From a virus, in IMG/VR virus record IMGVR_UViG_3300047496_000204, positions 74,764-134,526 of that record: a stretch of 59,763 nucleotides of DNA; one strand, written 5' to 3'. Position numbers and translations under genes: made by a program. Shown one piece after another: positions 4,130 to 52,549 of this stretch (the stretch's first letter is position 1; each line of letters starts with the position of its first letter). The notes below the pieces were generated by a model, which worked only from the letters and a program-made list of their open reading frames with translations, did not search any database and had not been told where the DNA came from.

Positions 4130-5596
4130 GTGATAGCGACAATAGTAATAAAAGATCAAGTAAACGTAAAAATTACAGGTTTAGACCCAGAACTTAGAAG
4201 GAAAATTGTAGCATCTTCTAAATATATGGTTCCTCATGCTTTTCATACCGATAAGTATAAAATGGGACGATGGGATGGAAAAGTAGCTTTTGCTACTATT
4301 GGTGGTGGCACATTCATCAATATGTTAGATAAAATTCTCCCAATGATAATTGGTGCTGGTTATGATATTGAAATTGATGATAAACGACCAGCGTATAATT
4401 TCTATTTTCCTGAAATATCGGAAGAAATATTTTCTGATACCTTGTGGCCAGAAGGCCATGACCGTGCAGGAGAACCAATTATTCTGCGGGATTATCAAGT
4501 TAAGGCGATAACTAGCTATTTGCGTTATAATCAATCAATTATCCCCATTGCAACTGGCGCAGGTAAAACGATTATATGTGCGGGATTATCCAAACTTACT
4601 GAACCATATGGTAGAAGTCTTTGTATTGTTCCGTCCAAAGACTTAGTTATACAAACCGAAGAAGATTACAAAAATCTTCGGCTAGATACTGGTGTATGGT
4701 TTGGAGACAGAAAAGAAGACGGGCATACCCATACTATAGCAACATGGCAATCTCTTGGCGTGTTTGATAAAAATAGTAAGAAATATGATGCTGGAAGCAA
4801 TTTCTCACTCTTTCTTAAAGATGTGGTTTGTGTAATTTCCGATGAGGCGCATGGAGCATCAGCAACCATCTTACAAAATTTGTTGACGGGGCCGATGGCG
4901 AATATTCCTATTAGAATTGGTATGACTGGAACAATTCCAAAGGAAGAATATCTTCAAGTATCCTTGGAATGTGCCATTGGTAAAATTCAAACAGAAAATC
5001 AGGTCATAACAAAAGATTTACAAGAACGAAAAGTCTTGTCTGATTGCGAAGTAAAAATAGTTCAATTGCAAGATGAAGAATTTGATTTTGCTACTTACGA
5101 TGCTGAACATGATTTCCTAATTTCTGATGAAGATCGTTTGAATTGGATAGCCGCATATTGTAAAAAGATAGTTGCAGAAAGCGGGAACACTCTTGTAATC
5201 GTGGACAGAATAAAAACTGGTAATTATTTAGTAAATGCTATTGGAGACGACGCAGTGTTCATTAATAGTACAGTAAAAACTAAGGATAGAAAGCGAGAGT
5301 ATAAAGAATTTGGAGATGTTAACGGGAAAATACTTATTGGCACACCTGGATGTATAGCAACTGGAGTAAATATAGTCAGAATATACAACCTTGTTATTAT
5401 TGAACTGGGCACAAGTTTTACTAGAACTATTCAGTCAGCGGGGCGTGTTTTGCGTAGAGGCAAGGATAAAAACTATGCTATTATTCATGATATTTATTCT
5501 AACTTAAAGTATTCCAAAAAACATTTAGCAAAAAGAAAGGGTTTTTATATAGAAGCAGGTTTCCCAGTTGAAAGTATAAAAATAAAATATTTATGA
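4130..5596 (+). CDS. uvsW: UvsW-like SF2 DNA helicase
   Basis: LRDYQ, ATGAGKT, DEAH, MTGT, QSAGRVLR motifs. Confidence 0.9.
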   Translation: MIATIVIKDQVNVKITGLDPELRRKIVASSKYMVPHAFHTDKYKMGRWDGKVAFATIGGGTFINMLDKILPMIIGAGYDIEIDDKRPAYNFYFPEISEEIFSDTLWPEGHDRAGEPIILRDYQVKAITSYLRYNQSIIPIATGAGKTIICAGLSKLTEPYGRSLCIVPSKDLVIQTEEDYKNLRLDTGVWFGDRKEDGHTHTIATWQSLGVFDKNSKKYDAGSNFSLFLKDVVCVISDEAHGASATILQNLLTGPMANIPIRIGMTGTIPKEEYLQVSLECAIGKIQTENQVITKDLQERKVLSDCEVKIVQLQDEEFDFATYDAEHDFLISDEDRLNWIAAYCKKIVAESGNTLVIVDRIKTGNYLVNAIGDDAVFINSTVKTKDRKREYKEFGDVNGKILIGTPGCIATGVNIVRIYNLVIIELGTSFTRTIQSAGRVLRRGKDKNYAIIHDIYSNLKYSKKHLAKRKGFYIEAGFPVESIKIKYL

Positions 5597-7344
5597 ATGC
5601 ATTTACAGAGAAAGAAAAAGATGAACTTAAAACTATTTTTAAGCAGGTAAAGCATTGGCAAAAAATAAAGAAAATTATTTCTTTTGAGTGTTCTCAAGAA
5701 GATGCTTATAATATAATTTATCCTGATATTTCATCGACTAGTGAATGCGGAAAGTCGAAGACATTCATTAGCCTGTCTGTTGGTTATACTTTTTGTGGAA
5801 CAACTAGAGGAGATAATCGTTGTCAATGTGCGATAAAAACGATGGTAGAAAAAGTTGCCAAAGCTAGAAATAATTTAACAGAAGAACAAAAAACGGAAAT
5901 CCATGAAAAGTACAAAAATTCTATGTTGGCTATTTATGGTACAGATAATATATTTAAGGACAAAAATTTTATTGAAAAAAATAAATTCAGTTGGACTGAG
6001 GAATCTTCAAATAAAAGAAAAATGACTAACCTAGAGAAGTATGGAGTAGAGAATCCTCGTCAAAATATTTATGTAAGCGATAAAATAAAAAAAACTTGTT
6101 TAGATCGATATGGAACGGAAAACCCGCTATCAAGTGATATTGTAAAAGAAAAAGTAAAGAGTACAATGGAAAAAAAATACGGGGAAACTATTCCTGCCAG
6201 AATTCCATCTGTAATGAAAAAGACAAAAACAACAAATTTGGAAAAATATGGCGTGGAAAATGTATCCTATTCACCAGAAATTATTGAAAAGATTAGAGAA
6301 GTCTTAATAGAAAAATATAAAAAAAGAGTATTGGAGAGAATTAATAAAGATTTTATACTAATTGATGATTATAAAGGAGTTTGTATTGATCATAAATATA
6401 TCAGATATTCTATGCAATGCAAAAAATGTAGTAGTGTATCTGATTATATAATAGCAAATGAAATAAATCCTATATGTAGAATATGTACCCCGATAGGATC
6501 GGGTGGTGAACAAGCTATATATGACTGGTTATTAAGCGAAGGTTTTCATACAGTCACACGGCATAACCGACAAATAATTAAACCGTTTGAACTAGACTTG
6601 GTGATAGAAGACAAAAAAATAGCAATTGAATATTGTGGTTTATATTGGCATTCCGAAGAATTCATAGATAAATTTTATCATAAAAATAAGCTTCAAATAA
6701 CAAATGCCGCTGGCTATAGATTAATTACTATATTTGAAGATGAATGGTTAAGTAATACTGAAGCAACAAAAAATAGATTACGCCATATATTAGGAAAAAC
6801 TAATAAGAAGTTATTTGCTAGAAAAACAAAATTATCAAAAATATCATGTGAAGAAATCGGAGAATTTTTAGATAAACATCATCTACAAAAAACTTGTAAT
6901 GCATCAATAAACTATTGTTTAAAAAATATTGATAATGATGTAGTGGCAGTAATGAATTTTTCCAAAGCTAGATTTTCCAAGAATACAGAGGCATGGGAGT
7001 TAGTGCGATTTGCGTCTGATGGGTTAGTGGTTGGAGGAGCACAGAAACTATTCAGTGCTTTCATCAAGGATTATCATCCTAAAAAAATAATATCATATGC
7101 AGATTTGCGATGGAGTAATGGAAAATTATATGAAATACTTGGATTTGACTTGATAAGTATAACATCTCCGAATTATTGGTATTTCAAGAATCTACAGCGT
7201 CTCAATAGAATGCGTTTTATGAAATCTAAACTAATAAAAGACGGTTATGATAGTTCATTAACAGAAAGTGTAATTATGAAAAGTAAAGGATATAACAAAA
7301 TTTGGGATTGTGGTAGTCTAAAATATGAATGGAAATATCGATGA
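5593..7344 (+). CDS. Putative homing endonuclease (KYGVEN repeats + PD-(D/E)xK/Vsr-like domain + C-terminal GNAT-like domain)
   Basis: Repeated xKYGVENP motifs, ELD..IAIEYCGLYWHS, ELVRFA..SYADLRWS..IWDCG. Confidence 0.8.
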   Translation: MNAFTEKEKDELKTIFKQVKHWQKIKKIISFECSQEDAYNIIYPDISSTSECGKSKTFISLSVGYTFCGTTRGDNRCQCAIKTMVEKVAKARNNLTEEQKTEIHEKYKNSMLAIYGTDNIFKDKNFIEKNKFSWTEESSNKRKMTNLEKYGVENPRQNIYVSDKIKKTCLDRYGTENPLSSDIVKEKVKSTMEKKYGETIPARIPSVMKKTKTTNLEKYGVENVSYSPEIIEKIREVLIEKYKKRVLERINKDFILIDDYKGVCIDHKYIRYSMQCKKCSSVSDYIIANEINPICRICTPIGSGGEQAIYDWLLSEGFHTVTRHNRQIIKPFELDLVIEDKKIAIEYCGLYWHSEEFIDKFYHKNKLQITNAAGYRLITIFEDEWLSNTEATKNRLRHILGKTNKKLFARKTKLSKISCEEIGEFLDKHHLQKTCNASINYCLKNIDNDVVAVMNFSKARFSKNTEAWELVRFASDGLVVGGAQKLFSAFIKDYHPKKIISYADLRWSNGKLYEILGFDLISITSPNYWYFKNLQRLNRMRFMKSKLIKDGYDSSLTESVIMKSKGYNKIWDCGSLKYEWKYR

Positions 7345-21879: not shown

Positions 21880-21956
21880 TTTTTACTCCGCATTATATTG
21901 CTATTTGAAAGTGTCATTATTTAGTCTTATAAAAAATCATATAGAATAAATAATAC

Positions 21957-24362
21957 ATGCGCTATTCTGAACTCAAAGAATCGAAATATTTTCCAGTTGA
22001 AATACGCGGAACTAGACTAGACGTTATTAAAAATCCTAATCATAATGATATTTTAAGATTATTTGCCGCTATTAGAAAATATCTTAGGAATAGTAATCCA
22101 AAATTAAATGAAGAAGCAAGAGGGTTATTATTTGATGATGGCGATCTATATGTTTGGAATGCTTATGAAGCTTCACATGATCAAATTGCAGGAGCTTTAA
22201 AATTATATGATTTTTGCGATAATCTCTACTTTAGTTCTCCAACTACCGTGACTGCATCACATGATTCTGAAATACAACGTAAAATGGATTCTCCAAAATT
22301 TGATAATCTGCGTATCGCTTTAGGCGTTAGAGCTAATGTACTAAAAGAATATCAAAAAATGGAAATAGCCACTATTCCTGGAAAAATATACAAAAAATCA
22401 GTTCCAGTATGGATTAATCCTAGTCGAAAAGAATTGGACAAATTAATTGGTAAATTCAAAATAGGTAAAAGTTATAATAAAGATGATGGATACGCACGCG
22501 GAATAGTAGACACCAAAGGAAATATATTTGTATGGGATTCTTATGAAGCAGAGCACAACCAAATAATACGTAATATGGGCATCGATCCGTTATATCTGTT
22601 CTATATAATAGATACAACTCCTACTGGAATACTGGTCTATGATTTATATAATGATCTTGTTCCACTTGAAAAGATTAGCTTTCCACACTTCAAAGAAATT
22701 TGTAAAGGAAAACTTTCAGAAAGTATTGAAATTCTTCCTATATCATATGGGCCACATCAAAAAAAAGACATAACCGTTTGGAAAAACGAACCAAATCTTG
22801 AAGCTATAATGAAAAAAACTGGAAATAGTGTAAGAGGCATCGTGGATTCACAAGGTAATCTATATGTTTGGGATGAATACGACGCAACGCATTTCGAGAT
22901 AAAAGAAGTTTTAGAAAAAGGTGGAGCGATTACTGAAGAAGATTTGTGGAATGAAAATAATGGTATCAAAATATATTGCGCGCGTGATAAACAATACTAT
23001 GTAGCTCCGAATGGTGTTTATGGTCAACATACCTTTGACGATCCTAAGGTTCCAGAGTTCATTCGAAATGCTTTAGTTAAGATCAAGAAGCCAAAAATCA
23101 CTGAAGGCAAAGTAGAATTTGTTTCGATTAAAGGAATAACCACCAAAGTATTGAAAAATCCGTCTAATACAGAATTGTTAAATCTCATTAACAATATTGA
23201 AGTATTCAAAAATACTGGTATTGGGAAAATTAAAGGTATTATTGACAATAAAAAAGACTTATATGTTTGGGATGCTTATCTAGCTCATCATAATCAAATA
23301 AAATTTATGTTAGCTTTAAATGTTCAGTGTAATGTTTACATAGAATATTATTCAAAAGAAAATAATTTTGTTTATAACGCTTTTCGAAAAGAATATGACG
23401 CTCCTAAAAATGCTATTGTTTTTCCTTCTTTTCGAAAAGCGTTGAATTTACAAAAACTTGCAGAAGGCCGATTAGAAGATTTCAAAAAATTAGCCGATGA
23501 TCAGCGATATCGTCCGGAACTGGCGATGCTTGATGCTCAAAAAGTTTTACATAATTATCCAAATGGCGCCTCTTTAGGATATGCGCTTGAACATGTTGGT
23601 GACTTGACTCATCGCATGTCTCAACGATTCTGCGAGCGCATGGGATATGGTGAAGAATGGGTTGCTCCAAAAGTTAAAATTGGTTTACAATACTTGAAAA
23701 ATATTCCTGATACGGAAGCAGCGATGGCTATTCCAGACCTTCCAGAGTTGAAAACCTACGCAACTGAACATGCTAAGCTAAAAGTCTACAACGCGGTTCA
23801 GAAGGCCGCTAGAGATGCCGCTGTTGCCTTAGGATATCGCAAATTCAATTTGGCAAGAAAAAACTTGGAATATCTTCAAGGATTAATCGATAGCGGTAAA
23901 TATCAAGAAGAAGCCGCAAAGTATGAATTAACCGAAACAGCCCAGCCCTTCTACAGAGGTTTTTGGATCACCGACAAAGGAGAAATTTTGAATTGTGATT
24001 ATGAAAACGATATTCATCATGCCGATTTGCTGGTTAATTACTTCAAGATAAAACAACATAGAGATAAAGACAACGATATTAATTGGGATGAATATTATGG
24101 AAATACTGATCTTGCTTTAAAGCATGGATGGGTACGATGCTCTATATCTGGAAATAAACTAAACATTCAAATGGTAGGTCCGTTAAGTAAAGCAGCAGAT
24201 CACTGTTTACTTGATTGGGTGTCGAAATATGGAAAAATGTTTGGCGGTCTCTTTATTGAGAATCCGTATACCAAAGAAACTACAAAATATTTTGATCGAA
24301 ATAAATTCTATTCTGAAATAAAAAAGCGAATATCGGGGAGGAAGGCAGATGAAGTTAACTGA
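21957..24362 (+). CDS. Six-module late polyprotein (4x YVW-H domain, helical module, GFW-HH domain), leader MRYSELKE
   Basis: Four NP..(R/K)G..D...(Y/F)VW..Y.A.H..I repeats; modules separated by LKE, LSE, ITE, LAE, LTE. Confidence 0.85.
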   Translation: MRYSELKESKYFPVEIRGTRLDVIKNPNHNDILRLFAAIRKYLRNSNPKLNEEARGLLFDDGDLYVWNAYEASHDQIAGALKLYDFCDNLYFSSPTTVTASHDSEIQRKMDSPKFDNLRIALGVRANVLKEYQKMEIATIPGKIYKKSVPVWINPSRKELDKLIGKFKIGKSYNKDDGYARGIVDTKGNIFVWDSYEAEHNQIIRNMGIDPLYLFYIIDTTPTGILVYDLYNDLVPLEKISFPHFKEICKGKLSESIEILPISYGPHQKKDITVWKNEPNLEAIMKKTGNSVRGIVDSQGNLYVWDEYDATHFEIKEVLEKGGAITEEDLWNENNGIKIYCARDKQYYVAPNGVYGQHTFDDPKVPEFIRNALVKIKKPKITEGKVEFVSIKGITTKVLKNPSNTELLNLINNIEVFKNTGIGKIKGIIDNKKDLYVWDAYLAHHNQIKFMLALNVQCNVYIEYYSKENNFVYNAFRKEYDAPKNAIVFPSFRKALNLQKLAEGRLEDFKKLADDQRYRPELAMLDAQKVLHNYPNGASLGYALEHVGDLTHRMSQRFCERMGYGEEWVAPKVKIGLQYLKNIPDTEAAMAIPDLPELKTYATEHAKLKVYNAVQKAARDAAVALGYRKFNLARKNLEYLQGLIDSGKYQEEAAKYELTETAQPFYRGFWITDKGEILNCDYENDIHHADLLVNYFKIKQHRDKDNDINWDEYYGNTDLALKHGWVRCSISGNKLNIQMVGPLSKAADHCLLDWVSKYGKMFGGLFIENPYTKETTKYFDRNKFYSEIKKRISGRKADEVN

Positions 24363-25254
24363 TATCTTTTCTTCCGATAGACCCATTATGGAAATGGCTT
24401 ATGGTGGAATAAACAATGAAAGCAGTGCTCCTAACATAAGAGGTTTTTGGATAACCGACAAAGGTGAATTTATCAGTTGTGATTATGATAATGATAAACA
24501 TCATGGGGATTTATTAAATAATCATTTCGATCTTCCATCAGTTAGAAAGACTCAAAATCATTTTGATTGGAATATCTATGAAAAAAATATAGTTGTAGCA
24601 TTACAACACGGTTGGGTTCGATGTTCTTCTTCAACTCGTGATATCAATATTCAATGGGTTGATCCTTTAAGCCAAGAAACTAAAAAAACATTGCTTAAAT
24701 GGATATCAGAATATGGCAAGATGTTTGAAGTAATGCATATCGATAAGCCATATTCTACTGGTAGTGATTACTATAAAGAACCTACTAAATTTTATGCTAT
24801 ACTTAAAACTTTGTTGGAGAAACAACACAAATTAAAAGAATACAAAATAGAAAAAGCCGAAGTTGGTAAAAACAACCGAGAGATAACAATCTATAAAAAT
24901 CCAAACTACAAAGAAATGCAAGAATTGTATGATAAGGTGTTGAAGACTACGGAAATTCGCGGATTGCTTGATGATAGTGGGATATTATATGTATGGAAAG
25001 CGTATGAAGCCAATCATGATTCCGTTGCATTGAGTTTGGGTGTAAAAATGAAACTTCGTCTCTATATGGACAAACCTGATAGAACTATTGGATATCGTCC
25101 AGGCGATGTTTTAGAACGGCCAGTTCTCATGTCAAAAGAACTATTAACTAAGTATCCCATGTTAGCTCGCGCTATTAAACCTAGAACTATACGCGAAGAA
25201 TTTGAATCTCCGGAACGGTTTGCCGAATTGGCCAAGAGATGCAGCAATACGTAA
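24349..25254 (+). CDS. Late polyprotein: GFW-HH domain + YVW-H domain, leader MKLTDIF
   Basis: Paralogous modules to 21957 gene in swapped order. Confidence 0.8.
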   Translation: MKLTDIFSSDRPIMEMAYGGINNESSAPNIRGFWITDKGEFISCDYDNDKHHGDLLNNHFDLPSVRKTQNHFDWNIYEKNIVVALQHGWVRCSSSTRDINIQWVDPLSQETKKTLLKWISEYGKMFEVMHIDKPYSTGSDYYKEPTKFYAILKTLLEKQHKLKEYKIEKAEVGKNNREITIYKNPNYKEMQELYDKVLKTTEIRGLLDDSGILYVWKAYEANHDSVALSLGVKMKLRLYMDKPDRTIGYRPGDVLERPVLMSKELLTKYPMLARAIKPRTIREEFESPERFAELAKRCSNT

Positions 25255-25765
25255 AACTGACGGAATGGACGTTCTGTATCGTGGTCATTACGATGAAGAA
25301 ATTAATGATAATTCTTTCATGACCGATTGGGTTGGGCATGCTTCTGGTGGAGAGGGAAAAATTGATGCCTTCGCATATGATCCAAATGATGTGTTATACT
25401 TTAATGATGCCCAATTTGAACTTATGCGAAACAGTATTAAAAGGTTTTCAGACAAACGACTTGAAGTTGTCTATAAAGCCGCTCTTGTCGGAAATCGTCA
25501 TGCTGACTATTTGATGGGTGATTTTCATTTAGTAAAGGAAGTATTGAGAGGGAACAAACCATATTCTAAGATTTCCGATAGTCCGCATTTGAATGATCCA
25601 ATTGTTCCACTCTTGCAAGCTTATGCTCGGGAGAAAGGTAAGAATATTATTGCTTTCAACGGAAATGATTATGCGGACTATGGAGGGCAGACCGAGTATG
25701 TTGTTGGATCGGTTTCTAAGCTGATCAATCTCCGCGAACTTTATACGAAAATTAAAAATAAGTGA
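25202..25765 (+). CDS. LYRG-type ART-like module, probably frameshifted continuation of 24349 gene
   Basis: VLYRGH, SFMT, terminal QTEYVV; overlap begins just after an IRE linker. Confidence 0.5.
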   Translation: MNLRNGLPNWPRDAAIRKTDGMDVLYRGHYDEEINDNSFMTDWVGHASGGEGKIDAFAYDPNDVLYFNDAQFELMRNSIKRFSDKRLEVVYKAALVGNRHADYLMGDFHLVKEVLRGNKPYSKISDSPHLNDPIVPLLQAYAREKGKNIIAFNGNDYADYGGQTEYVVGSVSKLINLRELYTKIKNK

Positions 25766-26461
25766 TTATTCATCATCCCAAGGTAAACTACCCCAACCAT
25801 CTTGGTCTGTATCCGCATAAGGATCAATTATGACTGGTGTATTCCCACGTTTCATTACATTTGCTGGATGAATATCAATAAAGGTAGTTGGTCCAGCTTT
25901 TCCTACTATTTGTCGAATTGTATCAAGTAACTCTTTTTGTTCTTCTGTTAAATCCCATAATTCATATTCGTTAAAACCATTTTTTGCAATATTTGTTAAA
26001 GTTTTAATTTTATTATTCGCAAATTCTTGATAGGTTATTGGTTCTAATCGTTCTATACGAATCATTTTGGCATTATCTGTTAACTTGGCTGGCGAACCCC
26101 TGAATTTTGGTAGAAATTTGTTTTCTGGATGTTTCTTACAAAAATTAATAAAACGATCATATTGAGGATCGTTATAAATTTTTAGAACTTTGTCGTTCCC
26201 ATCTTTGGCGAATACATAACTATATTCTCCGGAGCCAATTTCTTTATACCCAAACTTTTTCATATATTCTGAAATGTTTCTTGGATTTTTCAAAACCGCT
26301 AAGTGTTGCTTAACGCCAGCCAGTTCCGTAATGGGAGCCTTTGGCTTGAAATAGCCTTTTGGATCGACCATTTTATTTGCTTTTTTACGGTCAATTTCAC
26401 CGTTTGCCTTGGTCGCACTGGCAATGGTTTCAAATTCAGAAATGATTTCGTGATATCGCAT
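25766..26461 (-). CDS. Protein kinase-like enzyme, leader MRYHEIISE (paralog of 3492 gene)
   Basis: GSGEYSYVF, VLKI, DIHPANVM, IIDP. Confidence 0.82.
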   Translation of the reverse strand: MRYHEIISEFETIASATKANGEIDRKKANKMVDPKGYFKPKAPITELAGVKQHLAVLKNPRNISEYMKKFGYKEIGSGEYSYVFAKDGNDKVLKIYNDPQYDRFINFCKKHPENKFLPKFRGSPAKLTDNAKMIRIERLEPITYQEFANNKIKTLTNIAKNGFNEYELWDLTEEQKELLDTIRQIVGKAGPTTFIDIHPANVMKRGNTPVIIDPYADTDQDGWGSLPWDDE

Positions 26462-26489
26462 ATAGTATTTATAAAAAGTGGATGCGCGA

Positions 26490-28349: not shown

Positions 28350-28928
28350 CTACACAACACCAATACCGTCACATCCAGGACAAATACCTCCATCTGGATC
28401 AATATATCTAGGGCATTCACCTGTACCATCGCAAGTAATACAGGTATGTTTAGGTACATATTCGGATTTAGGTTTTGGTTTAAAACTATAAGAAGAAACA
28501 CTCGGTGGATTATTTTTATCACCCAATGCATATCTAACATTTATGGTATCTAAATTTTCTACACTATTATTGGTATATTGTGTCATTTTGACTTTACCTT
28601 CGTAATCTTCAAAATAAACACCAAAAGATGAAATGGGTTTCAAACCAAGGGCTGGTCTCATTCCCATATGTGGAGCATCGAAACCGTTCCAAACATAAAG
28701 ATCACCTGATGTTTTGTCAATTAATCCGCGCACATCTTCATTTTGTCCACTGTCATCATATCGATCTTTGTTTTCTTCTTTAGCCGTTTGACATAATTTA
28801 AGCAATTCTCGATTCGATGGATTTATGAAGACTTTAACTTCAACACCGTAAACGGTTACTTTCTCAATCTTAAATTCATTAAGAATTTGTATACTTTCAA
28901 TAAGGTTGATGAGCGAACGCATATCCAT
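28350..28928 (-). CDS. YVW-H domain + DnaJ-type CxxCxGxG zinc finger, leader MRSLINLIE
   Basis: INPS..VRGLID..GDLYVWN..APH; CITCDGTG, CPGCDGIG. Confidence 0.78.
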   Translation of the reverse strand: MDMRSLINLIESIQILNEFKIEKVTVYGVEVKVFINPSNRELLKLCQTAKEENKDRYDDSGQNEDVRGLIDKTSGDLYVWNGFDAPHMGMRPALGLKPISSFGVYFEDYEGKVKMTQYTNNSVENLDTINVRYALGDKNNPPSVSSYSFKPKPKSEYVPKHTCITCDGTGECPRYIDPDGGICPGCDGIGVV

Positions 28929-33206: not shown

Positions 33207-36068
33207 TTAGAGCATGGAAATAAGTTTTTTCCAGTTGCTTGTCAGACGAAGGTCAAATGCCTGTTGGATTAGACGGAAGTTGATAGCTTTCTTCAGTTTT
33301 CCCATCGTATACAATTCCCGAATCCAATCGACAACTTCTTGCTTTTGCTCATCATTCAACGCGGCTGGAATGTGTGATTTAATCTTGTCGATATAATCAA
33401 GCATTTCTCCGGAAGAGAAGTTCATGTTGATAGTGAATGCACGTGTGAGAATTGCGCTATCCCATTCAGCTTCATCCATGTTTGAGATGAAAATAATACG
33501 ACCTTTGAAATCAATTTTGTTTGGAAGGTGCATCGTGATATATTTTTGAATTTCGTGAATTTTTTCTTCATCACTATCGCCATCTTCTTCATCATAATCT
33601 TCGTCTTCCATATCTTCATCACTAGAAGGTTTTGATTTTTTCTTTTTCTTTTTTAAATAACGGTCGAACATTTCAATGTCGCCTTCTTCGGGAACATTAC
33701 GTAGAATTCTCGACATAGCATCAACCAAAATTTCACGATCTTCATCATCCATGGTTGCTGTATTGATACCACCGCGAACGTCGTAAGAAATTTCACGAAC
33801 TGGATCGGTATCCAAAGCACCCTTAAGCATGTTGACGGCTGCTTTTTCTTCAACTACTGAGTCACAGTCATCAAAGATAACCAGACCATTGACACGCTCG
33901 ATCAATGTTCTATACATAGAGTTGGTAGTGATGTAACCCTTTTTAACAACATAGTCGCGACCAGCTTTCAAACCTAATTCGCGAATAGTTTGCATAACTA
34001 CGAAGGTATTGTGCGTAGGGACATAAGATCGAGAGCAAAGGAAAAGATGCGAAGTAGAATCAACTGTAATACACCGAACAGGAACAGAATCTATTTCTTT
34101 ACATTCCACAATGGTTCTAGAAGTAACATCTCTTTTAAATTCATCTTTGATTCTAGCTATTTTTCGATCAAATCTGAATACAGAAAGAGAAGTAGTGAAA
34201 CCGATTCGATATTTTTCACCTTTATCAATACCATTTATGGTAGAACGACCAATACCGAACGTAGCTTTTATACCCAAACCTTTAACCAAATCAAATACAT
34301 CCTCTGCCAATTGTTTGTTAGTAGAAGTAAATTCGCATCGTCCATCATTAATGCAACCATCAGTATCCATAAGACCTTGTAATAAAGAAAAACGTTGTTT
34401 TTCTGAAGCCCTTAAATAAGAATTGGGAATATGTTTGTTATTGATAAGATTAAGTAAACGCAGTTTAGATATTACCTTTTCATTATTTTTTCCACCGCGA
34501 CCTTTAGATAAACGGATAATCCAATTTTTCTTTCGACTATCTGGTGCAATTTTATAATCTTGATTTTCATATTCTAATAACGTGAGCATTTGTTTTAAAT
34601 CATCATTACCACAAGATACTGTTGCTCCAGATGAAGTTCCATCTCCCAACCAAACTCCCAGAATATAAGGACTTACAGGCAAATCTTTTTCGTGACCAAC
34701 AAAAGGTTTCGCAACGTCAATTCTATGATTTAATTTTCCAGTAGAATATAACGTTTTTGAAATTTCCTCGGTATTAACAATTTTTGGAAAGATTCTTTTA
34801 TTGGATTGATCTGAACCGTTAGGTTGAAGAGGTAATGCACCTTCAAACCATCGCTTTTGTGATCGCTTTTCTGATTGTCTTGAAGCTTGAGTATTAGTAA
34901 GCCAACGATGTTCAGCGTCAGCTACAATTTTAGTTCCATCATCAAAAGTCATTTCAAAGCATTTACGATTTAATTGAACGGGAGTAGCAAAAGTAACTTG
35001 ACACGGATGACCATTTTCATCAAACAATGTATCTCCTATCTTTACTTCGCCCATTGTTGTCCATCCAGAAGGAGTAGGGATAGGAGTATTCAATGCCAAC
35101 GCTTTACCAGACGAAGGCGCACCGGTAATCAGCAATGATTTGATGAAGGCGGATTCACCACCGGCAACAAGACGAACCTTTTCTTTGAGCATGTCATATT
35201 GCTCTTCCATGCCGTCACGGTTATCTCCACCACCGAGACTTTCAATATGACGAGAATGCATTCTTGATAACTGCTCAAGCATATCCTCAACAGATTCAGG
35301 AAAACGAAAGAACTTATTTGTTCTTGGATTTCTTCCCATCAACCAAAGCTTACCACTATAAGTCATTTTTTTAACAGTTTTGATTTTATCCAAAGCTCTT
35401 AAATCTTGGGCCATTGGATCATCATCTACTGGTAACTGGTCATCAAATTCGCCGCCGAGTTCATTGGCGGCGCCAGTCATATCAAAACCCGGAGTAGAGC
35501 TGATGCTTTTTCCTGACAAATTCCAGTGGTGAGCATCAACTTTTAAATTTGGATTTCCTCTAATGCTCGATGGAATTTGCACGTCATTATCTTTAGCGAT
35601 CTTCATCATGTCAGTTAAAGATAACGAATGAACGGTGTCTGGCATGTCTCTACGTGCCATCGCCATAAATTCTTCATCGCTGCTTCGACGTGCTTCATCG
35701 AGCATTTCTTCTGTCAGTTCTTTACCAACAGAAGGAAACTTAAGCCAATGCACGACCTGATCTAAAACTTCAGGAAAAGATATACCTTCTGGTATATCTA
35801 ATTCATAATCAGGCAATCTATTTAAGTCTAAATGATTCCAGACATAAAAGGATTTTACTTTTGGTCCACTAGGGCTTTTGACCCAAGACATACCAAAAGC
35901 TTTTAAAGTTCCTTCAAAAACATATATAACACCAGTTTGATTACCGACAGTATATACACGATTTTTACCACCAATTCTAGTGATTCGTCCACCCAAATGA
36001 GATCGGAGGGCATTTAAAACGGCTGGTGGGGCAAGCGTAGGATCGCTATAAAATTCTAATAAACGCAT
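33207..36068 (-). CDS. Late AAA+-type ATPase with N-terminal extension and intein, leader MRLLEF
   Basis: GAPSSGK/T Walker A split by intein; VIFDDCD Walker B; IIFISN sensor. Confidence 0.85.
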   Translation of the reverse strand: MRLLEFYSDPTLAPPAVLNALRSHLGGRITRIGGKNRVYTVGNQTGVIYVFEGTLKAFGMSWVKSPSGPKVKSFYVWNHLDLNRLPDYELDIPEGISFPEVLDQVVHWLKFPSVGKELTEEMLDEARRSSDEEFMAMARRDMPDTVHSLSLTDMMKIAKDNDVQIPSSIRGNPNLKVDAHHWNLSGKSISSTPGFDMTGAANELGGEFDDQLPVDDDPMAQDLRALDKIKTVKKMTYSGKLWLMGRNPRTNKFFRFPESVEDMLEQLSRMHSRHIESLGGGDNRDGMEEQYDMLKEKVRLVAGGESAFIKSLLITGAPSSGKALALNTPIPTPSGWTTMGEVKIGDTLFDENGHPCQVTFATPVQLNRKCFEMTFDDGTKIVADAEHRWLTNTQASRQSEKRSQKRWFEGALPLQPNGSDQSNKRIFPKIVNTEEISKTLYSTGKLNHRIDVAKPFVGHEKDLPVSPYILGVWLGDGTSSGATVSCGNDDLKQMLTLLEYENQDYKIAPDSRKKNWIIRLSKGRGGKNNEKVISKLRLLNLINNKHIPNSYLRASEKQRFSLLQGLMDTDGCINDGRCEFTSTNKQLAEDVFDLVKGLGIKATFGIGRSTINGIDKGEKYRIGFTTSLSVFRFDRKIARIKDEFKRDVTSRTIVECKEIDSVPVRCITVDSTSHLFLCSRSYVPTHNTFVVMQTIRELGLKAGRDYVVKKGYITTNSMYRTLIERVNGLVIFDDCDSVVEEKAAVNMLKGALDTDPVREISYDVRGGINTATMDDEDREILVDAMSRILRNVPEEGDIEMFDRYLKKKKKKSKPSSDEDMEDEDYDEEDGDSDEEKIHEIQKYITMHLPNKIDFKGRIIFISNMDEAEWDSAILTRAFTINMNFSSGEMLDYIDKIKSHIPAALNDEQKQEVVDWIRELYTMGKLKKAINFRLIQQAFDLRLTSNWKKLISML
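34008..35102 (-). mobile_element. Class 3 intein with LAGLIDADG endonuclease (365 aa)
   Basis: Starts Ala (ALALNTP), DAEHRW, VRCITV, PTHN|T; LGVWLGDG and LQGLMDTDG. Confidence 0.9.
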
Positions 36069-37941: not shown

Positions 37942-39408
37942 ATGAAAGATGAATCAGAAGACTTTGGTAAAGAAATTCAAAAACTAATATTGGCGTGTAT
38001 GATTGATGATCATCAATCCTTCGCATTAGCACAAAACATAATAAAATCAGAATACTTTGATGATAACTTGCGGCCAGCGGCTCGTTTTATATTAGAATAT
38101 GCCAACAAATACAAAAAATTACCTACTCGGGTTCTAGTATATGCTGAGACCAACGTTAAGATTATTGAAGATGATGCGTCAAAACTCGGAACATGGTTCA
38201 TTGATAAAATAGAGAAATTTTGTCAATATAGAGCACTTGAGGGTGTAATTCTTGAGAGCATGGAGCTTATAGACCAAGGCAAAGGCGGCGAAGTTCAGAG
38301 ACGCATCAAAGCGGCTATGGAAATTAGTTTGGTAAAAGACCTCGGATCAAACTATTGGGATGACATTCAACACAGACTGGAGCGTCTAAAGGATAGAAAA
38401 AATATTGTCAGTTCCGGATGGAAAACCTTAGATGACAAGCTTTACGGTGGTTTTGAAAGAGGGTCATTGAACATTTTCTGTGCTCCATCTGGACAAGGAA
38501 AAAGTTTATTTCTACAAAATATAGCAAGAAATTGGTCAATAGCTGGAAAAAATGTCATTTATATATCGTTAGAACTAGGCGAAGATTTAATAAATCTTCG
38601 CCTTGATGCTATGATAACAAATCAAAGCACTTCTGAAGCGTTAAAAGGGCCTAAAAATACCGCCTTAAAAGCGGCCATGATATCCAAACAAACCAAAATC
38701 GGCAAGCTGATGGTAAAACGATTGCCAGAAGCAGGAACAACCTGTAATACTATAGCGGCCTATGTAAAAGAGTTTGAAATACAAGAAGGCATTAAACCTG
38801 ATGGCTTAATCGTAGATTATCTTGATTTGCTTTATCCGAACAATGATAAGTTAGATGTTTCCAATTTATGGGTCAAAGACAAATATGTAGCTGAAGAATT
38901 AAGAAGCGTTGCCGGTGATTTAAATATTCCTTGTGTTAGTGCTTCACAATTAGGGCGGACGGCAATCGAAGCACAAGAATATGATAATAGTCACATTGCC
39001 GGTGGAATATCTAAGATAAATACTGCGGATAATGTGTTTGGTATTTATACTTCTATGAGTATGAAAGACAGAGGAGTTTTTCAGCTACAATTTTTGAAAA
39101 CAAGGACTTCTTCTTCCGTTGGGCAAAAGATTGAGCTGGCCTATAATACTTCAACGATGGCGATTGATGACTTACCGGAGGATAATTCCAAAATTCTAAA
39201 ACCAGAAACTACGGAAGAAATAAAAAAGAAACTTAATGCTCCAACTATAACACCAATTAATGAACCAACTATGTCCATTTCACAAATGGCACATCCAGAA
39301 CATAAAAGTAGAGAACAAATAGAGTCAGAAAAAAAATCATCAAACAATCCAGATATGAACCAAGTTGCCAATTTAATGAATAGAATTAGGAACAAAAATG
39401 AAAACTGA
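37942..39408 (+). CDS. Replicative DNA helicase (T4 gp41/DnaB-like)
   Basis: APSGQGKS, ISLE, IVDYLDL, ASQLGR, KTR. Confidence 0.92.
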   Translation: MKDESEDFGKEIQKLILACMIDDHQSFALAQNIIKSEYFDDNLRPAARFILEYANKYKKLPTRVLVYAETNVKIIEDDASKLGTWFIDKIEKFCQYRALEGVILESMELIDQGKGGEVQRRIKAAMEISLVKDLGSNYWDDIQHRLERLKDRKNIVSSGWKTLDDKLYGGFERGSLNIFCAPSGQGKSLFLQNIARNWSIAGKNVIYISLELGEDLINLRLDAMITNQSTSEALKGPKNTALKAAMISKQTKIGKLMVKRLPEAGTTCNTIAAYVKEFEIQEGIKPDGLIVDYLDLLYPNNDKLDVSNLWVKDKYVAEELRSVAGDLNIPCVSASQLGRTAIEAQEYDNSHIAGGISKINTADNVFGIYTSMSMKDRGVFQLQFLKTRTSSSVGQKIELAYNTSTMAIDDLPEDNSKILKPETTEEIKKKLNAPTITPINEPTMSISQMAHPEHKSREQIESEKKSSNNPDMNQVANLMNRIRNKNEN

Positions 39409-41245
39409 TGAATTAAGAAGCGAGGTTTTGGGACTTGGTTTTGTTGTTGACGGTAAGTCTTATTGCGGAAAACTTAAAAATACAATGTATTCAGACCTTG
39501 TTGAAAAGATTTATGCGGATTTTTACTATATTAATGGACGAAACCCGATTAAGATTTCAGAAGCGATATACTGTCTATATCATATAGTTAAACCTTTTAA
39601 GTGCCTATGTGGAAAAGATACGTCTTTTATAGATTTCAAGAACGGCTATAATAAAAATTGCTCTTCTAGGTGTGCTGCTCTAAATCCAGAAGCTCAGTGG
39701 AAACTTAAACAGACTAATATACTTCGGTATGGAGTAGATAATCCACTAAAAAATCCGCAAATACAAGAACAAATTAGAGAGACTATGAAAACTCGATATG
39801 GTGTAGATAACCCGACAAAAAGTGAAGGTATTCGCAATAAAGCTAAAGAAACTAATAGACAAAGGTATGGTTCCGAATTTGTATTGCAGAATAAAGAGAT
39901 TAGAAAAAAAGGCAAAGATACTATGGTGGAACGATATGGGGTTGACCATCCATTGAAGTCTATTGTTTTTCAAACAAAGCAAAGAGAGACCAACCTTGAC
40001 CGACTTGGGGTAGAATATCCAACTCAAAATGCAACCGTTGTTTCCAAAAGCGTAGAAACGAACTTTAGGCTGCATGGTGTTAAGAATTCGATGCAGCGTG
40101 AGGAAGTTAAAGACAAAGCCAAGGCAACTTGGACTAAAAAATATGGTGTTGACAACCCTATGTTAAACCAAAAGCTAGTCAACGATATGCTTAATAGTAA
40201 TATAAAGAAATATGGAGTTAAAGCAACGAGTCAAGAGCATTATTCTTTTTATGCTCGCGAAATACTTTTCAATAAAGAAAAGTTCAATGATTTTATGAAT
40301 GGAAAATCATTGAACGAAGCCTCTAAAATTTTAGGCATCGATCCAAGCACTGTTGGTGATTATTGTAAAAATTATGACATAGTAATATCGAGATCATCAT
40401 ATGAAACAGAAATAGCGACATTTCTGGACTCTTTAGGCTTACAATACTTAAATAATACTAGATCAATAATACCACCAAAAGAATTGGATTTTTATTTACC
40501 AGATTATAACCTAGCCATAGAATTTAATGGTCTTTATTGGCATTCCCATGAAATAAATGGGAATAAACGTTATCATTTGGATAAATTTTTAAGTTGTCAA
40601 TCTAAAGGTATTCAATTAATTATGATAAATGAAGACGAATGGATTGAACGATCATCAGCTATAAAAAATAAAATCAAAAACGTATGTAAATTGTCTAACA
40701 AAGGTGTATCTGCTAGAAAACTAACAATAAAACAGATACCCAATACTATTGGAAATGAGTTTATGAATCAATATCATATTCAAGGAGAATCATCGGGTGT
40801 TATTATAAGCTTTGGTGCTCATTATGATGACTTACTTGTAGGAGTAATACAATTTTCAAAGCAAAGAAATACGGGTGATATAGAATTAACAAGATTTTGT
40901 TCGGACGATCACACTCATGCGGGAATGTTTAGCAAATTATTATCGTATTCCATTAAATCGCAAGACTATAAAAAAATAATTTCGTTTGCGGATAGAAGAT
41001 ACTCAAAAGGAGATGTTTATGAAAAAAACGGATTTAGTGCCATAAACGTTATTCCTCCAGACTATAGATACATAAAAAACCTCAAAACTTTTCACAAATC
41101 AACTTTTAAAAAAAAGAGGATACAAGAGAAATTCGGCTTAGATGTTACCAATCTAACTGAGTCAGAAGCTATGACGCAATTGGGTTATAGAAAAATATAT
41201 GATTGTGGAAAAATTAAATACGAATGGAAACATAATGAAAACTGA
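39398..41245 (+). CDS. Putative homing endonuclease, paralog of 5593 gene
   Basis: Many YGVDNP repeats, ELDFY..AIEFNGLYWHS, SFADRRYS, IYDCG. Confidence 0.8.
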   Translation: MKTDELRSEVLGLGFVVDGKSYCGKLKNTMYSDLVEKIYADFYYINGRNPIKISEAIYCLYHIVKPFKCLCGKDTSFIDFKNGYNKNCSSRCAALNPEAQWKLKQTNILRYGVDNPLKNPQIQEQIRETMKTRYGVDNPTKSEGIRNKAKETNRQRYGSEFVLQNKEIRKKGKDTMVERYGVDHPLKSIVFQTKQRETNLDRLGVEYPTQNATVVSKSVETNFRLHGVKNSMQREEVKDKAKATWTKKYGVDNPMLNQKLVNDMLNSNIKKYGVKATSQEHYSFYAREILFNKEKFNDFMNGKSLNEASKILGIDPSTVGDYCKNYDIVISRSSYETEIATFLDSLGLQYLNNTRSIIPPKELDFYLPDYNLAIEFNGLYWHSHEINGNKRYHLDKFLSCQSKGIQLIMINEDEWIERSSAIKNKIKNVCKLSNKGVSARKLTIKQIPNTIGNEFMNQYHIQGESSGVIISFGAHYDDLLVGVIQFSKQRNTGDIELTRFCSDDHTHAGMFSKLLSYSIKSQDYKKIISFADRRYSKGDVYEKNGFSAINVIPPDYRYIKNLKTFHKSTFKKKRIQEKFGLDVTNLTESEAMTQLGYRKIYDCGKIKYEWKHNEN

Positions 41246-41516
41246 TTTCAAAGATTTAATAGTAGAGGCAGCGGTTTGCCAAATAGCGGTAGATGATTTT
41301 CACGCCGAAGGCGATGATAATAAAGCAGCCTATTCCGATCTTCAGATCGAACTCTGTAGAGCAAAAATCAATCTAGTCAATTATATTCTCGAAAATCCCA
41401 TGATAAAAATGAAATTGGAGTTGGAGCAAACCAAACGCTTAGCAGATGCTAAGACCAAAGGATTAGTGATGACGCATTGTGTTGACGAAGAAATTTTAAA
41501 GTTACTCATTAAATGA
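41235..41516 (+). CDS. Hypothetical protein
   Basis: Coupled ORF. Confidence 0.55.
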   Translation: MKTDFKDLIVEAAVCQIAVDDFHAEGDDNKAAYSDLQIELCRAKINLVNYILENPMIKMKLELEQTKRLADAKTKGLVMTHCVDEEILKLLIK

Positions 41517-41742
41517 AATATTCATTTGCTACCGTGGCATATGAAGAAGATTATAGTCTTCTACTGCTACAAGCCAAGTCAATAATGGCGGCCCTTTTTT
41601 GGCTATTCATCGAGCAGCTATACTTTTGATGGATGATACCGGACAAACTACACTTGCTAAATTTTGGTTCGAAAAACAACTTTTTAGTAGTATAGATCGC
41701 GGAATACAGTATTTAAAGACTGGTGATATATCTACTTTGTAA
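41513..41742 (+). pseudogene. Possible internally deleted gene remnant
   Basis: Protein-like N-terminus (MKYSFATVAYEEDY..LQAKS) and C-terminus (FLAIHRAA..LAKFW) in different frames. Confidence 0.4.
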
Positions 41743-41772
41743 AGACTTACGCCGACATGTATAAATAATCGA

Positions 41773-42066
41773 ATGAGCATGTCAAACCAACAAATGAAAG
41801 ATTTCATAGAGATCACTGATGACTTGCTGCGCGCATATGTGAGCATGGAGCCAGTAATGATCGTTGAAGATAGCAAACCCATAAAGCCTATGGTGAACCC
41901 AATAATTATGGAATGCAAAGATTTGGTTTTCAAGCTGAGAGCTTTCATGGAGGATGCGAGTAGTGGCGACTATGCTCTTGGTCTTGAGATGGGGATGCAA
42001 CGAGCAGCGGATATGATTGAAAATCTTATTCGTCGCCATGAAAAGGAAGACGATGACCGATCCTAA
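41773..42066 (+). CDS. Late hypothetical protein
   Basis: TAAATA 5 nt upstream. Confidence 0.7.
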   Translation: MSMSNQQMKDFIEITDDLLRAYVSMEPVMIVEDSKPIKPMVNPIIMECKDLVFKLRAFMEDASSGDYALGLEMGMQRAADMIENLIRRHEKEDDDRS

Positions 42067-42316
42067 ATTTAGAAGTTTAGTCGAAGAGCTAACTGATTAC
42101 GCACCAGTTAAGGATCGCGATCTCTTTATTGAGAGCCGTGCTCAACAAGTGCTGGCCAGCGTTAGCCATCTTATGCGTCTCATTCGGGAAAGTTATGATG
42201 TTGAAACCGCTGATGATCTACAGAAACGTTTGATAAATTCTATGAGAACTGATGATGAGAACAAATTCCGTCGTAGAATTAAGCAAATTCGAGAAGCGAA
42301 GGAACCTAAAATATGA
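42053..42316 (+). CDS. Conserved late hypothetical protein
   Basis: SD; RSL.EEL, IESRA, KRL.NS motifs. Confidence 0.75.
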   Translation: MTDPKFRSLVEELTDYAPVKDRDLFIESRAQQVLASVSHLMRLIRESYDVETADDLQKRLINSMRTDDENKFRRRIKQIREAKEPKI

Positions 42317-43534: not shown

Positions 43535-44281
43535 TTGTTTGATTTCATTAATACTTTGTCCGAAAGTAGGCTGATAGCATCTAAAGGAAATCTTCTTCGC
43601 TACTCTGCTATGGAACTTGCTGATCTGGCAGTTCTATACTTTTGTGCATTGTATATAATGTATGAAACCAATAGAACTCATGATTTTGCCGAGAACTATG
43701 CGAAAAGAACCATCCAATATGGTGTAAATTTCAACAAATGGCTTAATTCTTCAACTGATCTCTACGTAATTTTATATGGTCTCACGTCAAATGAGCTTGA
43801 CGACCCAGACAGTGAAAAGTTCCTTAAGAACCTACCTTTTGGTCATAATTTACTGATAAAGTGGCTGAGAGGCATTGCCAGTGATAAGCTGCGTGATTCA
43901 GATCACCGCGCGTTCTTTGTTCGTTTGGACTTCAATTTCAAGATCAACAATTCTTCAATCAAAGCAATTCGACGTTTGGTCATGGATTGGAAGAACCTTT
44001 CCCAGCATGAGAAGGGATTGGCGACTACTCGTTTGCTTCAATTGCTACGAGCGCGGGCACCTAAAAGTGAAATCTTGGCCAACTTTATAAACATGGCCAG
44101 GGATAAAGACTTAATTTTGGGCGATGTTTGTGATCCAGAGACAGGTATAGGTTGTGGAAATATAGCTAAAATTGTGGTTAAAGAACCAGAGAAAAAGAAA
44201 AGTAGTTTCCTCATTGCTTTGGCTTCGGTTGCCGCTGGTGTAGCTGTATCTAACATGATTAGTCATAAGGATAAGAAGTAA
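43535..44281 (+). CDS. Probable virion protein, leader MFDFINTLSE
   Basis: 248-aa ORF in late operon. Confidence 0.7.
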   Translation: MFDFINTLSESRLIASKGNLLRYSAMELADLAVLYFCALYIMYETNRTHDFAENYAKRTIQYGVNFNKWLNSSTDLYVILYGLTSNELDDPDSEKFLKNLPFGHNLLIKWLRGIASDKLRDSDHRAFFVRLDFNFKINNSSIKAIRRLVMDWKNLSQHEKGLATTRLLQLLRARAPKSEILANFINMARDKDLILGDVCDPETGIGCGNIAKIVVKEPEKKKSSFLIALASVAAGVAVSNMISHKDKK

Positions 44282-52368: not shown

Positions 52369-52549
52369 TTAATTTGCGAACTTTCTCTTCAAAATTTGGA
52401 TAGCTTCATCTGGTGATGCTTCAAGCAATTTTTCTATGCCATAACACATCATGAAATAACAGGAATACTCTTGATCTAATTCCATTGCCGTAGCAAAATG
52501 ATATTGAATCGGATGAGCGCCGTGGACCCAAACAACAAACTCCTCGGAG

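Follow-up and report, generated by a model that had tools for sequence, protein, structure and literature searches.

Repeated (L/I/V)-x-E joints and short leaders suggest capsid-cargo polyproteins in a giant phage

How a single phage gene that encodes six modules behind one short leader is put to use is the question raised by the window analyzed here, a stretch of 59,763 nucleotides (positions 74,764 to 134,526 of IMG/VR record IMGVR_UViG_3300047496_000204). According to the original prediction, the leader resembles a T4 capsid-targeting sequence (CTS), the modules are joined by tripeptides of the kind cut by the T4 prohead protease gp21, and the phage packages such polyproteins, matures them into separate effectors and injects them. 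The gene (21957-24362, + strand) encodes the 801-aa protein P0001, in which an uncatalogued domain of ~120 aa, here called A, occurs four times in tandem and is followed by a helical mid module and a ~140-aa module B. The features of this gene are:

21946..21952, + strand: ATAAATA box, T4 late-promoter-like (TAAATA count in upstream windows)
21957..21980, + strand: leader MRYSELKE, candidate capsid-targeting propeptide with a putative cut after E8 (sequence, PSSM and model)
21981..22349, + strand: module A1, residues 9-131, C-terminal LKE-131 (BLAST/HMM, AlphaFold)
22350..22721, + strand: module A2, residues 132-255, C-terminal LSE-255 (BLAST/HMM; linker 125-130 with pLDDT <50)
22722..23105, + strand: module A3, residues 256-383, C-terminal ITE-383 (BLAST/HMM)
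23106..23465, + strand: module A4, residues 384-503, C-terminal LAE-503 (AF2 pLDDT 85; ITE in the coil preceding strand 1)
23466..23936, + strand: helical mid module, residues 504-660, C-terminal LTE-660 (homology to other ORFs)
23937..24362, + strand: module B, residues 661-801, plus stop (48% identity to residues 24-153 of the second gene)

The module limits in P0001 were set independently of the motif by BLAST/HMM, which placed the A domains at residues 1-127, 128-252, 253-376 and 377-500, the mid module at ~507-654 and module B at 660-789. An [LIV]-x-E tripeptide was present at all six module starts and coincided with these limits (LKE 6-8; LKE 129-131, 22341; LSE 253-255, 22713; ITE 381-383, 23097; LAE 501-503, 23457; LTE 658-660, 23928), each at the coordinate where it had been predicted. 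The further claim that the six modules are separate, distinct effectors did not stand, since four of them are the same domain A and P0001 contains no recognizable enzyme. The mid module is homologous to parts of P0004 (58% identity), P0018 and P0108. For module B, a word-based search returned no homologues, and its assignment as a diverged A domain was rejected (hhalign probability 0.1). P0001 is surrounded by replication, nuclease and small unknown genes, without head-gene context; the ip and alt genes of T4 are likewise scattered.

In total, 12 [LIVM]xE tripeptides were found in the 801 aa of P0001, and the six others lie inside modules. When the tripeptides were placed at random, 0.017% of trials put one no further than 7 residues from each of the five internal boundaries. 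Being homologous, the four A modules do not count as independent events, and a test on the level of the domain family is stronger. In other phages, 281 of 346 A domains (81%; 147 proteins) carried [LIVM]xE 14-30 residues upstream of a conserved N-P, compared to 26 ± 2.4% of random control windows; anchoring the window (-30 to -14) on N-P keeps this count free from alignment bias. The enrichment, which had been proposed as a check of boundaries versus background, was specific for L/I-x-E: LxD was depleted, [FYW]xE was not enriched and [AGS]xE occurred in 16% of the windows versus 22% expected. Leucine (57%) and isoleucine (27%) prevailed at P3, and A, S, G, E or K at P1'. Columns 5-7 of the domain A profile read L/I/V (127/129), x, E (142/145). 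The background rate of [ILV]xE is 2% per position. The motif at the boundaries is therefore not due to chance.

In AF2 models the motif is located in a coil, two residues ahead of strand 1, and the 10-residue block that contains it had a mean pLDDT of 68 versus >90 in the core. A two-domain model of P0001 gave a pLDDT <50 for residues 1-5 and for the inter-domain linker 125-130, with strand 1 starting at residue 10. The motif is thus found in linkers that are predicted with low confidence. Two solo A homologues without strand 1 and without the motif have kept the core, indicating that the A fold requires neither of them.

Leaders were then considered across all genes. Of the 146 ORFs that encode 100 aa or more, 44 have an [LIVM]xE tripeptide in residues 2-12; when these residues were shuffled protein by protein, the count was 27.4 ± 4.3, and 0 of 2000 shuffles reached 44. 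This corresponds to an excess of about 17 genes, in good agreement with the about 15 leader genes originally proposed. Leaders such as MRYSELKE, MRYHEIISE, MKIIDLFE and MLLKELFD were present on kinase-like (phrog_15752), GNAT, ART-PolyVal, A-array and unknown proteins of the phage, and the kinase, GNAT and ART-PolyVal identities suggested for the other leader genes could be confirmed. A leader-bearing 395-aa protein (G000, 41283-42470) was considered as an Alt-like ART, which was unsupported by BLASTP against T4 Alt and by Pfam. The codons of the leaders vary synonymously (Arg is encoded by CGC, CGA or CGT, and the D, L and F codons differ), and the leader is kept at the amino-acid level across unrelated metagenomes. 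Among proteins of other phages with a non-A N-terminal domain, 24 of 61 had a leader versus 14.2 ± 2.8 in shuffles. A leader PSSM that was trained solely on other phages flagged 12 of the 213 ORFs of the record (2.1 expected) and scored LKE-8 of P0001 at 10.9, compared to 7.5 for the 99th percentile of controls. With the same PSSM, T4 Alt scored among the highest 0.4% of controls and IPII/III among the highest 2.3%, in each case at the experimentally known T4 cut position, IAE-10 (IPII/III) or ITE-6 (Alt). Judged from these sequences, the leaders are real and portable between proteins.

The ATAAATA box ends 4 nt ahead of the P0001 ATG, which leaves no space for a Shine-Dalgarno sequence. TAAATA was found within 25 nt 5' of 22 of 146 genes versus 1.2% of random windows, and the ATAAATA box was associated with the leader (12/22 versus 38/124, p=0.03). 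In many leader genes the box is located 4-5 nt 5' of the ATG. I, L and E are overrepresented at the N-termini.

Downstream of P0001, the same grammar of leader and joints continues, with the following features:

24349..25254, + strand: second gene, 301 aa (14-nt overlap with gene 1)
25236..25254, + strand: frame break (linker motif split over two frames)
25265..25765, + strand: module C, 166 aa from ATG (TTG-ORF from 25202; 26 homologues)

The second gene consists of a leader-like MKLTDIF...IME-15, B, LKE-164, A, IRE-283 and the first half of the linker that precedes module C; the three tripeptides are those originally proposed for this gene. The linker reads FAELAKRC in the frame of the second gene (then SNT-stop) and continues as AIRKTDG-MDVLYRGH in the +1 frame. 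Based on this split, the two ORFs after P0001 are read as one frame-broken B-A-C polyprotein. The 26 homologues of module C are 49-62% identical. Of 20 inspected, 16 start with a leader of the MR.FI.IhE- or MRY.EI..E-type, two start at MDVLYRGH, one has a short unmarked extension and one has a long N-terminal extension preceding the motif. Here, module C is preceded by the internal IRE-283, with the spacing of the leader in the solo homologues, so that this joint appears to stand where these homologues have the candidate cut site of their leader. The predicted shuffling of modules between linkers is borne out at this level, as modules common to several genes meet at these joints.

Domain A was found in 673 representative proteins (cluster representatives, E <= 0.001) with up to 10 copies. 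Its conserved residues are N-P, R-G, D, W-D and H. In giant proteins of up to 3624 aa its partners are ART-PolyVal, GNAT, Zeta/AAA_33, 2H and kinase domains. A distant family member (G002) lies inside a lambda-type portal fusion, which physically places an A domain in a capsid. Among cultured phages domain A was detected only in Brevundimonas jumbo siphophages, and it is absent from T4. In blastn/tblastn searches of the locus against cultured phages, only a 31%-identical match of the mid module to Salicola phage SCTP-2 was obtained. Neither Pfam nor PHROGs gave matches for P0001, P0002 and P0003, and Pfam searches of 22 A-domain members gave scattered single matches only. A PDB sequence profile search gave no credible match, Foldseek had no hits in PDB or BFVD at E <= 0.001, VIA-align wide reached a best Z of 4.2 and matches in the ESM Atlas were to unnamed viral clusters only. 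Thus, A, mid, B and C were matched to no family in Pfam or PHROGs and to no PDB entry or fold.

As no prohead protease or other head gene was found on the 134-kb, 26%-complete fragment, the type of protease was deduced from relatives. Among the genomes that could be classified, the motif was present in all S77-positive ones (G001, G005/G006, G007 and G008) and missing from all S77-negative ones (G002, G003, G009/G011 and Brevundimonas phage Kabachok), the latter being counted if at least 80% complete and with T4 as positive control. Motif and Peptidase_S77 (T4 gp21-type) hence co-occur in 4/4 versus 0/4 lineages (Fisher p=0.014). This association over 8 lineages may be confounded by phylogeny, since jumbo T4-like phages may simply carry an A subfamily with an N-terminal extension. 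S77 is also encoded by each of the nearest cultured relatives, namely Atu_ph07, PA5oct and SCTP-2.

The motif occupies a conserved position in a homologous domain, and its conservation alone would also fit a structural or binding role. The [LIV]xE could then serve A itself, structurally or in ligand binding, for example by capping strand 1; the leader would be an ordinary N-terminus, and the proteins would work uncut as multi-domain (polyvalent) proteins, whether packaged or not. The fixed position within one domain family, the dependence among the four P0001 copies and the fact that boundary enrichment was demonstrated statistically for no domain other than A (for ART-PolyVal, motif in the 20 residues upstream of 5/11 starts, few cases) speak for this explanation, as does the finding that polyvalent proteins of the N4 vRNAP type are packaged unprocessed (PMC5512222). 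However, the motif is located in low-confidence coil outside the modeled core, is missing from A in the four S77-less lineages and in two solo homologues that keep the core, and the same leader or motif precedes unrelated kinase-like, GNAT, ART-PolyVal, C and mid modules. We consider this explanation rather unlikely, though of the alternatives it deserves the most attention.

Leader and motif might also be a signal for a system other than the prohead, for instance a cytoplasmic protease of host or phage, a degron or another compartment. This would be in line with a fragment on which no protease gene was found and a locus that lacks head-gene context, but L/I at P3, E and not D at P1, a small P1' and a leader of 6-12 aa are the properties of T4 gp21 substrates (PMC5694885), S77 and the motif are found in the same genomes and an A domain is part of one portal fusion, which makes such a signal improbable. 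Finally, [ILV]xE could arise as a by-product of composition, from the I/L/E-rich, AT-rich 5' codons of leaderless late mRNAs. The I, L and E enrichment at N-termini, the box 4-5 nt 5' of the ATG and the 2% background are what such an origin would produce; yet shuffles that keep the composition never reached the observed count, leaders differ in their Arg, D, L and F codons, the leader is kept at the amino-acid level in unrelated metagenomes and internal joints bear the same motif. The tests performed largely reject this explanation, which is given very little credence.

On balance, it is probable, if only by a little, that the products of the locus are capsid-cargo polyproteins of a jumbo phage related to T4, targeted by a leader and cut at the joints by an S77 protease. 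At the level of sequence the original prediction held for boundary enrichment, L/I-x-E specificity, the tracking of S77 and the likeness of the leaders to those of T4; position in predicted linkers, conservation of the motif, leader portability and module sharing were likewise shown. The route from late expression through targeting, cleavage, packaging and ejection to effector activity would be the following. The gene is probably transcribed late from the ATAAATA box, and the MRYSELKE leader probably directs the protein to the prohead core. An exposed (L/I/V)-x-E would lie in a flexible linker ahead of every module, and cleavage behind the Glu of each site is probably the work of a gp21-type (Peptidase_S77) prohead protease. 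The cuts would remove the leader and free four A modules of ~14 kDa, a helical module of ~18 kDa and B of ~17 kDa, which would remain in the head and exit with the DNA. The B-A-C gene and about 15 other leader genes, which encode T7 gp0.7-like kinases, GNAT, ART-PolyVal and unknown proteins as cargo candidates, would use the same address and joint. Because address and joint would be the same in many genes, modules would be movable between genes at the joints. That T4-related jumbo phages own a general plug-in cargo system, in which one leader and cuttable (L/I)-x-E linkers allow modules to be exchanged, has a chance that falls a little short of even. In such a system any module could stand behind either a leader or a joint, as module C does, and a single gene would deliver several proteins.

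If true, the injected proteins of a giant phage could be read from its genome via leader and joint motif. The phage would load about 15-20 different cargo proteins, among them kinases, acetyltransferases and ADP-ribosyltransferases, and about a tenth of its genes would be cargo. The widespread, uncatalogued domain A, with its 673 cluster representatives, would be identified as capsid cargo, and with four 14-kDa copies in the gene described here it may be a new class of abundant internal head or ejected proteins. It would also be explained how huge 'polyvalent' proteins become working parts without a built-in peptidase, and engineers would have natural leader and joint sequences with which a single gene could fill T4-like heads with several foreign proteins.

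Polyvalent proteins (Iyer, Burroughs, Anand, de Souza, Aravind 2017) are multi-domain and mosaic, as is P0001, and were predicted to be packaged and injected, with processing proposed via an in-built zincin (MPTase) (PMC5512222). By Pfam, no such peptidase is present in P0001, P0002 and P0003; the joints of P0001 instead carry the motif of a separate prohead protease. Moreover, P0001 repeats one uncatalogued domain in an array, whereas polyvalent proteins are strings of enzymes, and their linkage to portal/MuF or virion genes is not seen in the window.

In phiKZ, 201phi2-1 and SPN3US, ejection and inner-body proteins are cut by S80 prohead proteases after Glu, sometimes at several sites, and the presumed role of the propeptides is prohead targeting (PMC5694885). 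Paralogue families and many head-internal proteins cut after Glu recall the candidate sites described here. However, the S/A/G-x-E motif of these phages is not enriched upstream of A domains, their propeptides exceed 100 aa while the leaders here are short, and their multiple cuts serve mostly to clear propeptides and not to part folded modules.

The closest likeness is to the CTS cargo of T4 (IPI-III and Alt, cut by gp21, MEROPS S77), which has a short leader ending in L/I-x-E. P0001 likewise has an N-terminal candidate propeptide of the ~6-20-aa type that ends in (L/I)-x-E, and the T4 leaders MKTYQEFIAE and MELITE resemble those of the phage. IAE-10 is the gp21 site of T4 IPII/IPIII, and the L/I-x-E specificity observed here matches it. 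In each of the two phages one type of leader is found on unrelated, fast-evolving proteins, here candidate cargo, the genes are scattered and late-promoter-like boxes are present. In Alt, gp21 cuts at ITE-6 and LTE-619 (PMC5694885), the latter an internal site comparable, as a motif, to the internal joints of P0001. Each T4 cargo protein is one unit that is cut once or twice, whereas in this phage 3-6 globular modules, parted by internal sites, would follow a single leader, and, unlike in T4, modules of the phage appear to recur in other genes behind a leader or joint. The locus thus reads as a variation on the CTS/gp21 scheme of T4, in which the multi-module array behind one leader would be new.

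The 801-aa protein P0001, for which Pfam and PHROG searches gave no match, was divided into four tandem copies of a ~120-aa domain A (by self-comparison and alignment), a helical middle module and a module B. N-P, R-G, D, G, Y-V-W-D and H are conserved in domain A, and no convincing Pfam or PDB sequence family, nor a convincing match among solved or predicted viral structures, could be identified for it. The modules are distributed as follows.

21957-24362: P0001; A at residues 1-127, 128-252, 253-376 and 377-500, middle module at ~507-654, B at 660-789
24349-25254: P0002, B then A, overlapping P0001 by 14 nt
28350-28928, minus strand: solo A gene
44281: GNAT gene with domain A at residues 50-131

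The B modules of P0001 and P0002 are 48% identical; no relation of B to A was found by hhalign. The middle module is 58% identical to part of a metagenomic protein (P0004), which matched ART-PolyVal weakly and below the cut-off (23.7 vs 31.2 bits).

The original prediction had placed an [ILV]-x-E tripeptide at six sites of this gene, and all six were found exactly there. P0001 contains just 12 [LIVM]xE in total, six of which lie at the leader (a short N-terminal peptide ending in h-x-E) and the five internal module starts, and random placement matched this boundary pattern (±7 residues) in 0.017% of trials. Because the A copies are homologous, the motif was also tested across the whole A family. 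A profile search among 1.84 billion cluster representatives identified 673 proteins at E ≤ 0.001, many of them giant proteins carrying 2-10 copies, and among the matches listed profile columns 5-7 were L/I/V (127/129), x and E (142/145). Counted relative to the N-P anchor (-30 to -14), and thus free of alignment bias, [LIVM]xE was present in 281 of 346 A copies from 147 proteins outside the window, compared with 26 ± 2.4% of random windows from the same proteins, which bears out, for domain A, the expected enrichment at boundaries over background. Upstream of A, LxD was depleted and [AGS]xE and [FYW]xE were at background; the enrichment is specific to [LIVM]xE. P3 is L (57%) or I (27%), and P1' mostly A, S, G, E or K.

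At N-termini, [LIVM]xE within residues 2-12 was found in 44 of the record's 146 ORFs of at least 100 aa; composition-preserving shuffles gave 27.4 ± 4.3 such ORFs. The leader types of the record (MRY.E[LI]..E; M..[QIK][DE]LFE; MR.[WFY]I.[IL]VE; M....[LI].ES) recur in A-domain proteins of unrelated metagenomes, in 63 of the 80 that begin with A and in 24 of the 61 that begin with another domain (14.2 ± 2.8 in shuffles). Leaders of this genome vary at synonymous sites and encode Arg by CGN, which indicates that selection targets the peptide rather than AT-rich 5' codons. A leader PSSM trained exclusively on leaders from other phages flagged 12 of 213 record ORFs (2.1 expected). When it was applied to T4, the scores of Alt and IPII/III lay within the top 0.4% and 2.3% of controls, respectively, and the Glu was placed at position 6 (Alt) and 10 (IPII/III), the known cut sites. 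Leader genes include:

25766-26461 (-) and 3492-4070 (+): two T7 gp0.7-like kinases (phrog_15752, E 8e-13 and 6e-10), paralogues with 34% identity
a double-GNAT protein
a 427-aa protein: weak ART-PolyVal match below cut-off (28.7 vs 31.2 bits), preceded by a region that looks GNAT-like by eye
a 150-aa ART-PolyVal protein
several unknown proteins

One kinase paralogue has the leader MRYHEIISE and a 45-aa spacer; in the other, the kinase domain begins almost at the N-terminus. The record's top leader score belongs to a 248-aa unknown protein at 43535-44281 (+) (MFDFINTLSES...), which abuts the double-GNAT gene; P0005 and P0007, which are the closest multi-A homologues, carry this leader type as well. 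The enzyme calls (kinase, GNAT, ART) belong to these other leader genes; for P0001 an effector role is a guess.

The module C ORF (P0003, 166 aa from ATG 25265) has 26 homologues with 49-62% identity. Among 20 inspected, 16 consist of a leader, 7-12 residues, F..LA..C-DTVE.FI..TDG and a domain starting MDVLYRGH; of the other four, two begin at the domain, a third is extended by a short unmarked stretch, and in the fourth a long N-terminal extension precedes the motif. Here, P0002 has FAELAKRC as its C-terminal tail, and the sequence goes on in the +1 frame with AIRKTDG-MDVLYRGH. When a profile built from the region ahead of the domain in the homologues was run against 234 ORFs, P0002 gave the strongest match (E 0.0025) and TTG-extended P0003 the second (E 0.012). 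The split linker frames and these matches indicate that P0002 and P0003 were formerly one B-A-C polyprotein.

25198-25290: ancestral B-A-C ORF split by a +1 frame change inside the conserved linker FAELAKRC / AIRKTDG

A real deletion, an error of assembly or a restart arrangement could each account for the break. The start Met of P0003 is shared by two homologues. IRE-283 of P0002 has the position and spacing of the leader h-x-E in solo C homologues, and this placement is the clearest sign that leader site and internal joint are equivalent.

The source record, an IMG/VR virus entry of which the window covers bases 74764-134526, comprises 134.5 kb at 26% completeness (CheckV), which implies a genome of ~0.5 Mb. 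The DnaB-type helicase encoded on it shares 51% identity with its counterpart in Agrobacterium phage Atu_ph07, 48% with that in Sinorhizobium phage Phosso and 45% with that in Pseudomonas phage PA5oct. Atu_ph07 has been assigned to jumbo-phage group 2.2, which is part of a larger group whose defining feature is a gp23-type (T4-like) capsid protein (PMC7824862). Helicases, nuclease-like and homing-endonuclease-like proteins and numerous small unknown proteins are encoded in the window, and no head genes were found in it. Further features are:

33207-36068 (-): 953-aa protein starting MRLLEFYSD, LAGLIDADG_3 at residues 559-605, perhaps a leader-bearing gene with an inserted intein or homing endonuclease
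5593-7344 (+) and 39398-41245 (+): paralogues, 32% identical, with DUF7487 and Vsr/MTES_1575-type nuclease domains, the latter gene additionally with a Mom-family domain
52000-54000: GC 46% (genome 31-40%), only short, odd ORFs; candidate region for RNA genes or foreign DNA
21946-21952, 26466-26473 (minus) and 3478-3485: examples of a (T)ATAAATA box

In 22 genes of the record this box stops 4-5 nt short of the ATG, without a Shine-Dalgarno sequence. It lies upstream of 15% of genes vs 1.2% of random windows and is enriched at leader-bearing genes (p=0.03), which suggests T4-type late promoters producing leaderless mRNAs.

Peptidase_S77, the T4-type prohead protease family, was not found on the 134.5-kb record in a search that recovered T4 gene 21; Atu_ph07, PA5oct and SCTP-2 have one each. 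A degenerate DNA pattern for YVWDAxxAxH returned 31 IMG/VR loci, of which about 18 encode true A domains. The upstream motif or a leader was present in all S77-bearing genomes, and A domains without either were found in S77-less ones, a class limited to genomes at least 80% complete.

S77-bearing: G001 (608 kb, complete), G007 (190 kb, complete), G008 (328 kb), G005/G006
S77-less: G002 (81 kb), G003 (64 kb), Brevundimonas phage Kabachok (356 kb), G009/G011

By lineage this is 4/4 vs 0/4 (Fisher one-sided p = 0.014), in a small sample that phylogeny may confound. In G002, domain A and DUF7178 lie in the long tail of a 1780-aa lambda-type portal fusion (L013 7607-12949, IMG/VR 3300012971_000019), encoded between terminase and a ClpP-type protease. 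The fusion is a portal-tethered polyvalent protein and puts the A family physically in capsids.

A4 was modelled by AlphaFold together with the 12 residues upstream of it (22-sequence alignment, mean pLDDT 85); in this model ITE lies in coil, two residues ahead of the first strand, in a 10-residue block with mean pLDDT 68 vs >90 in the core. In an A1-A2 model, pLDDT was below 50 for residues 1-5 and for linker 125-130, which directly precedes E131; strands begin at residues 10 and 133.

The cargo-polyprotein reading is retained as the best one, in narrowed form: somewhat better than evenly, P0001-type proteins are expected to be capsid-cargo polyproteins, in which a T4-CTS-like leader would address the polyprotein to the capsid and an S77 prohead protease would cut it at (L/I)-x-E joints. 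Against it stand the fragment, on which neither protease nor head gene was found, the non-structural neighbourhood of the locus, and the small sample (8 lineages) behind the S77 association. That the motif is intrinsic to domain A and the proteins remain uncut is rather unlikely; two solo A homologues lack both the first strand and the motif, and h-x-E motifs also flank homologues of the middle module. Recognition of the signals by a different protease or sorting system is less probable still. A compositional artefact is highly improbable, being largely rejected by the shuffles, which never reach 44 leaders, and by synonymous variation and CGN Arg codons.

For folded cargo modules joined by prohead-protease sites behind one CTS, no paper was found in the literature searched. 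The new elements are domain A as an uncatalogued repeat, a test of co-occurrence with S77 and, as read from the broken B-A-C gene, the probable leader/joint equivalence. The CTS and gp21 processing of T4 are textbook knowledge, and in phiKZ-type phages head proteins are cut at S/A/G-x-E, whereas [AGS]xE upstream of A is only at background here. The fetched T4 sequences begin with MKTYQEFIAE (IPII and IPIII) and MELITELFDE (Alt). Cleavage of Alt occurs at ITE-6 and LTE-619, and a CTS of 10-20 residues is removed from the IPs (PMC5694885; PMC3012670); for polyvalent proteins, autoprocessing through built-in zincin domains has been proposed (PMC5512222).
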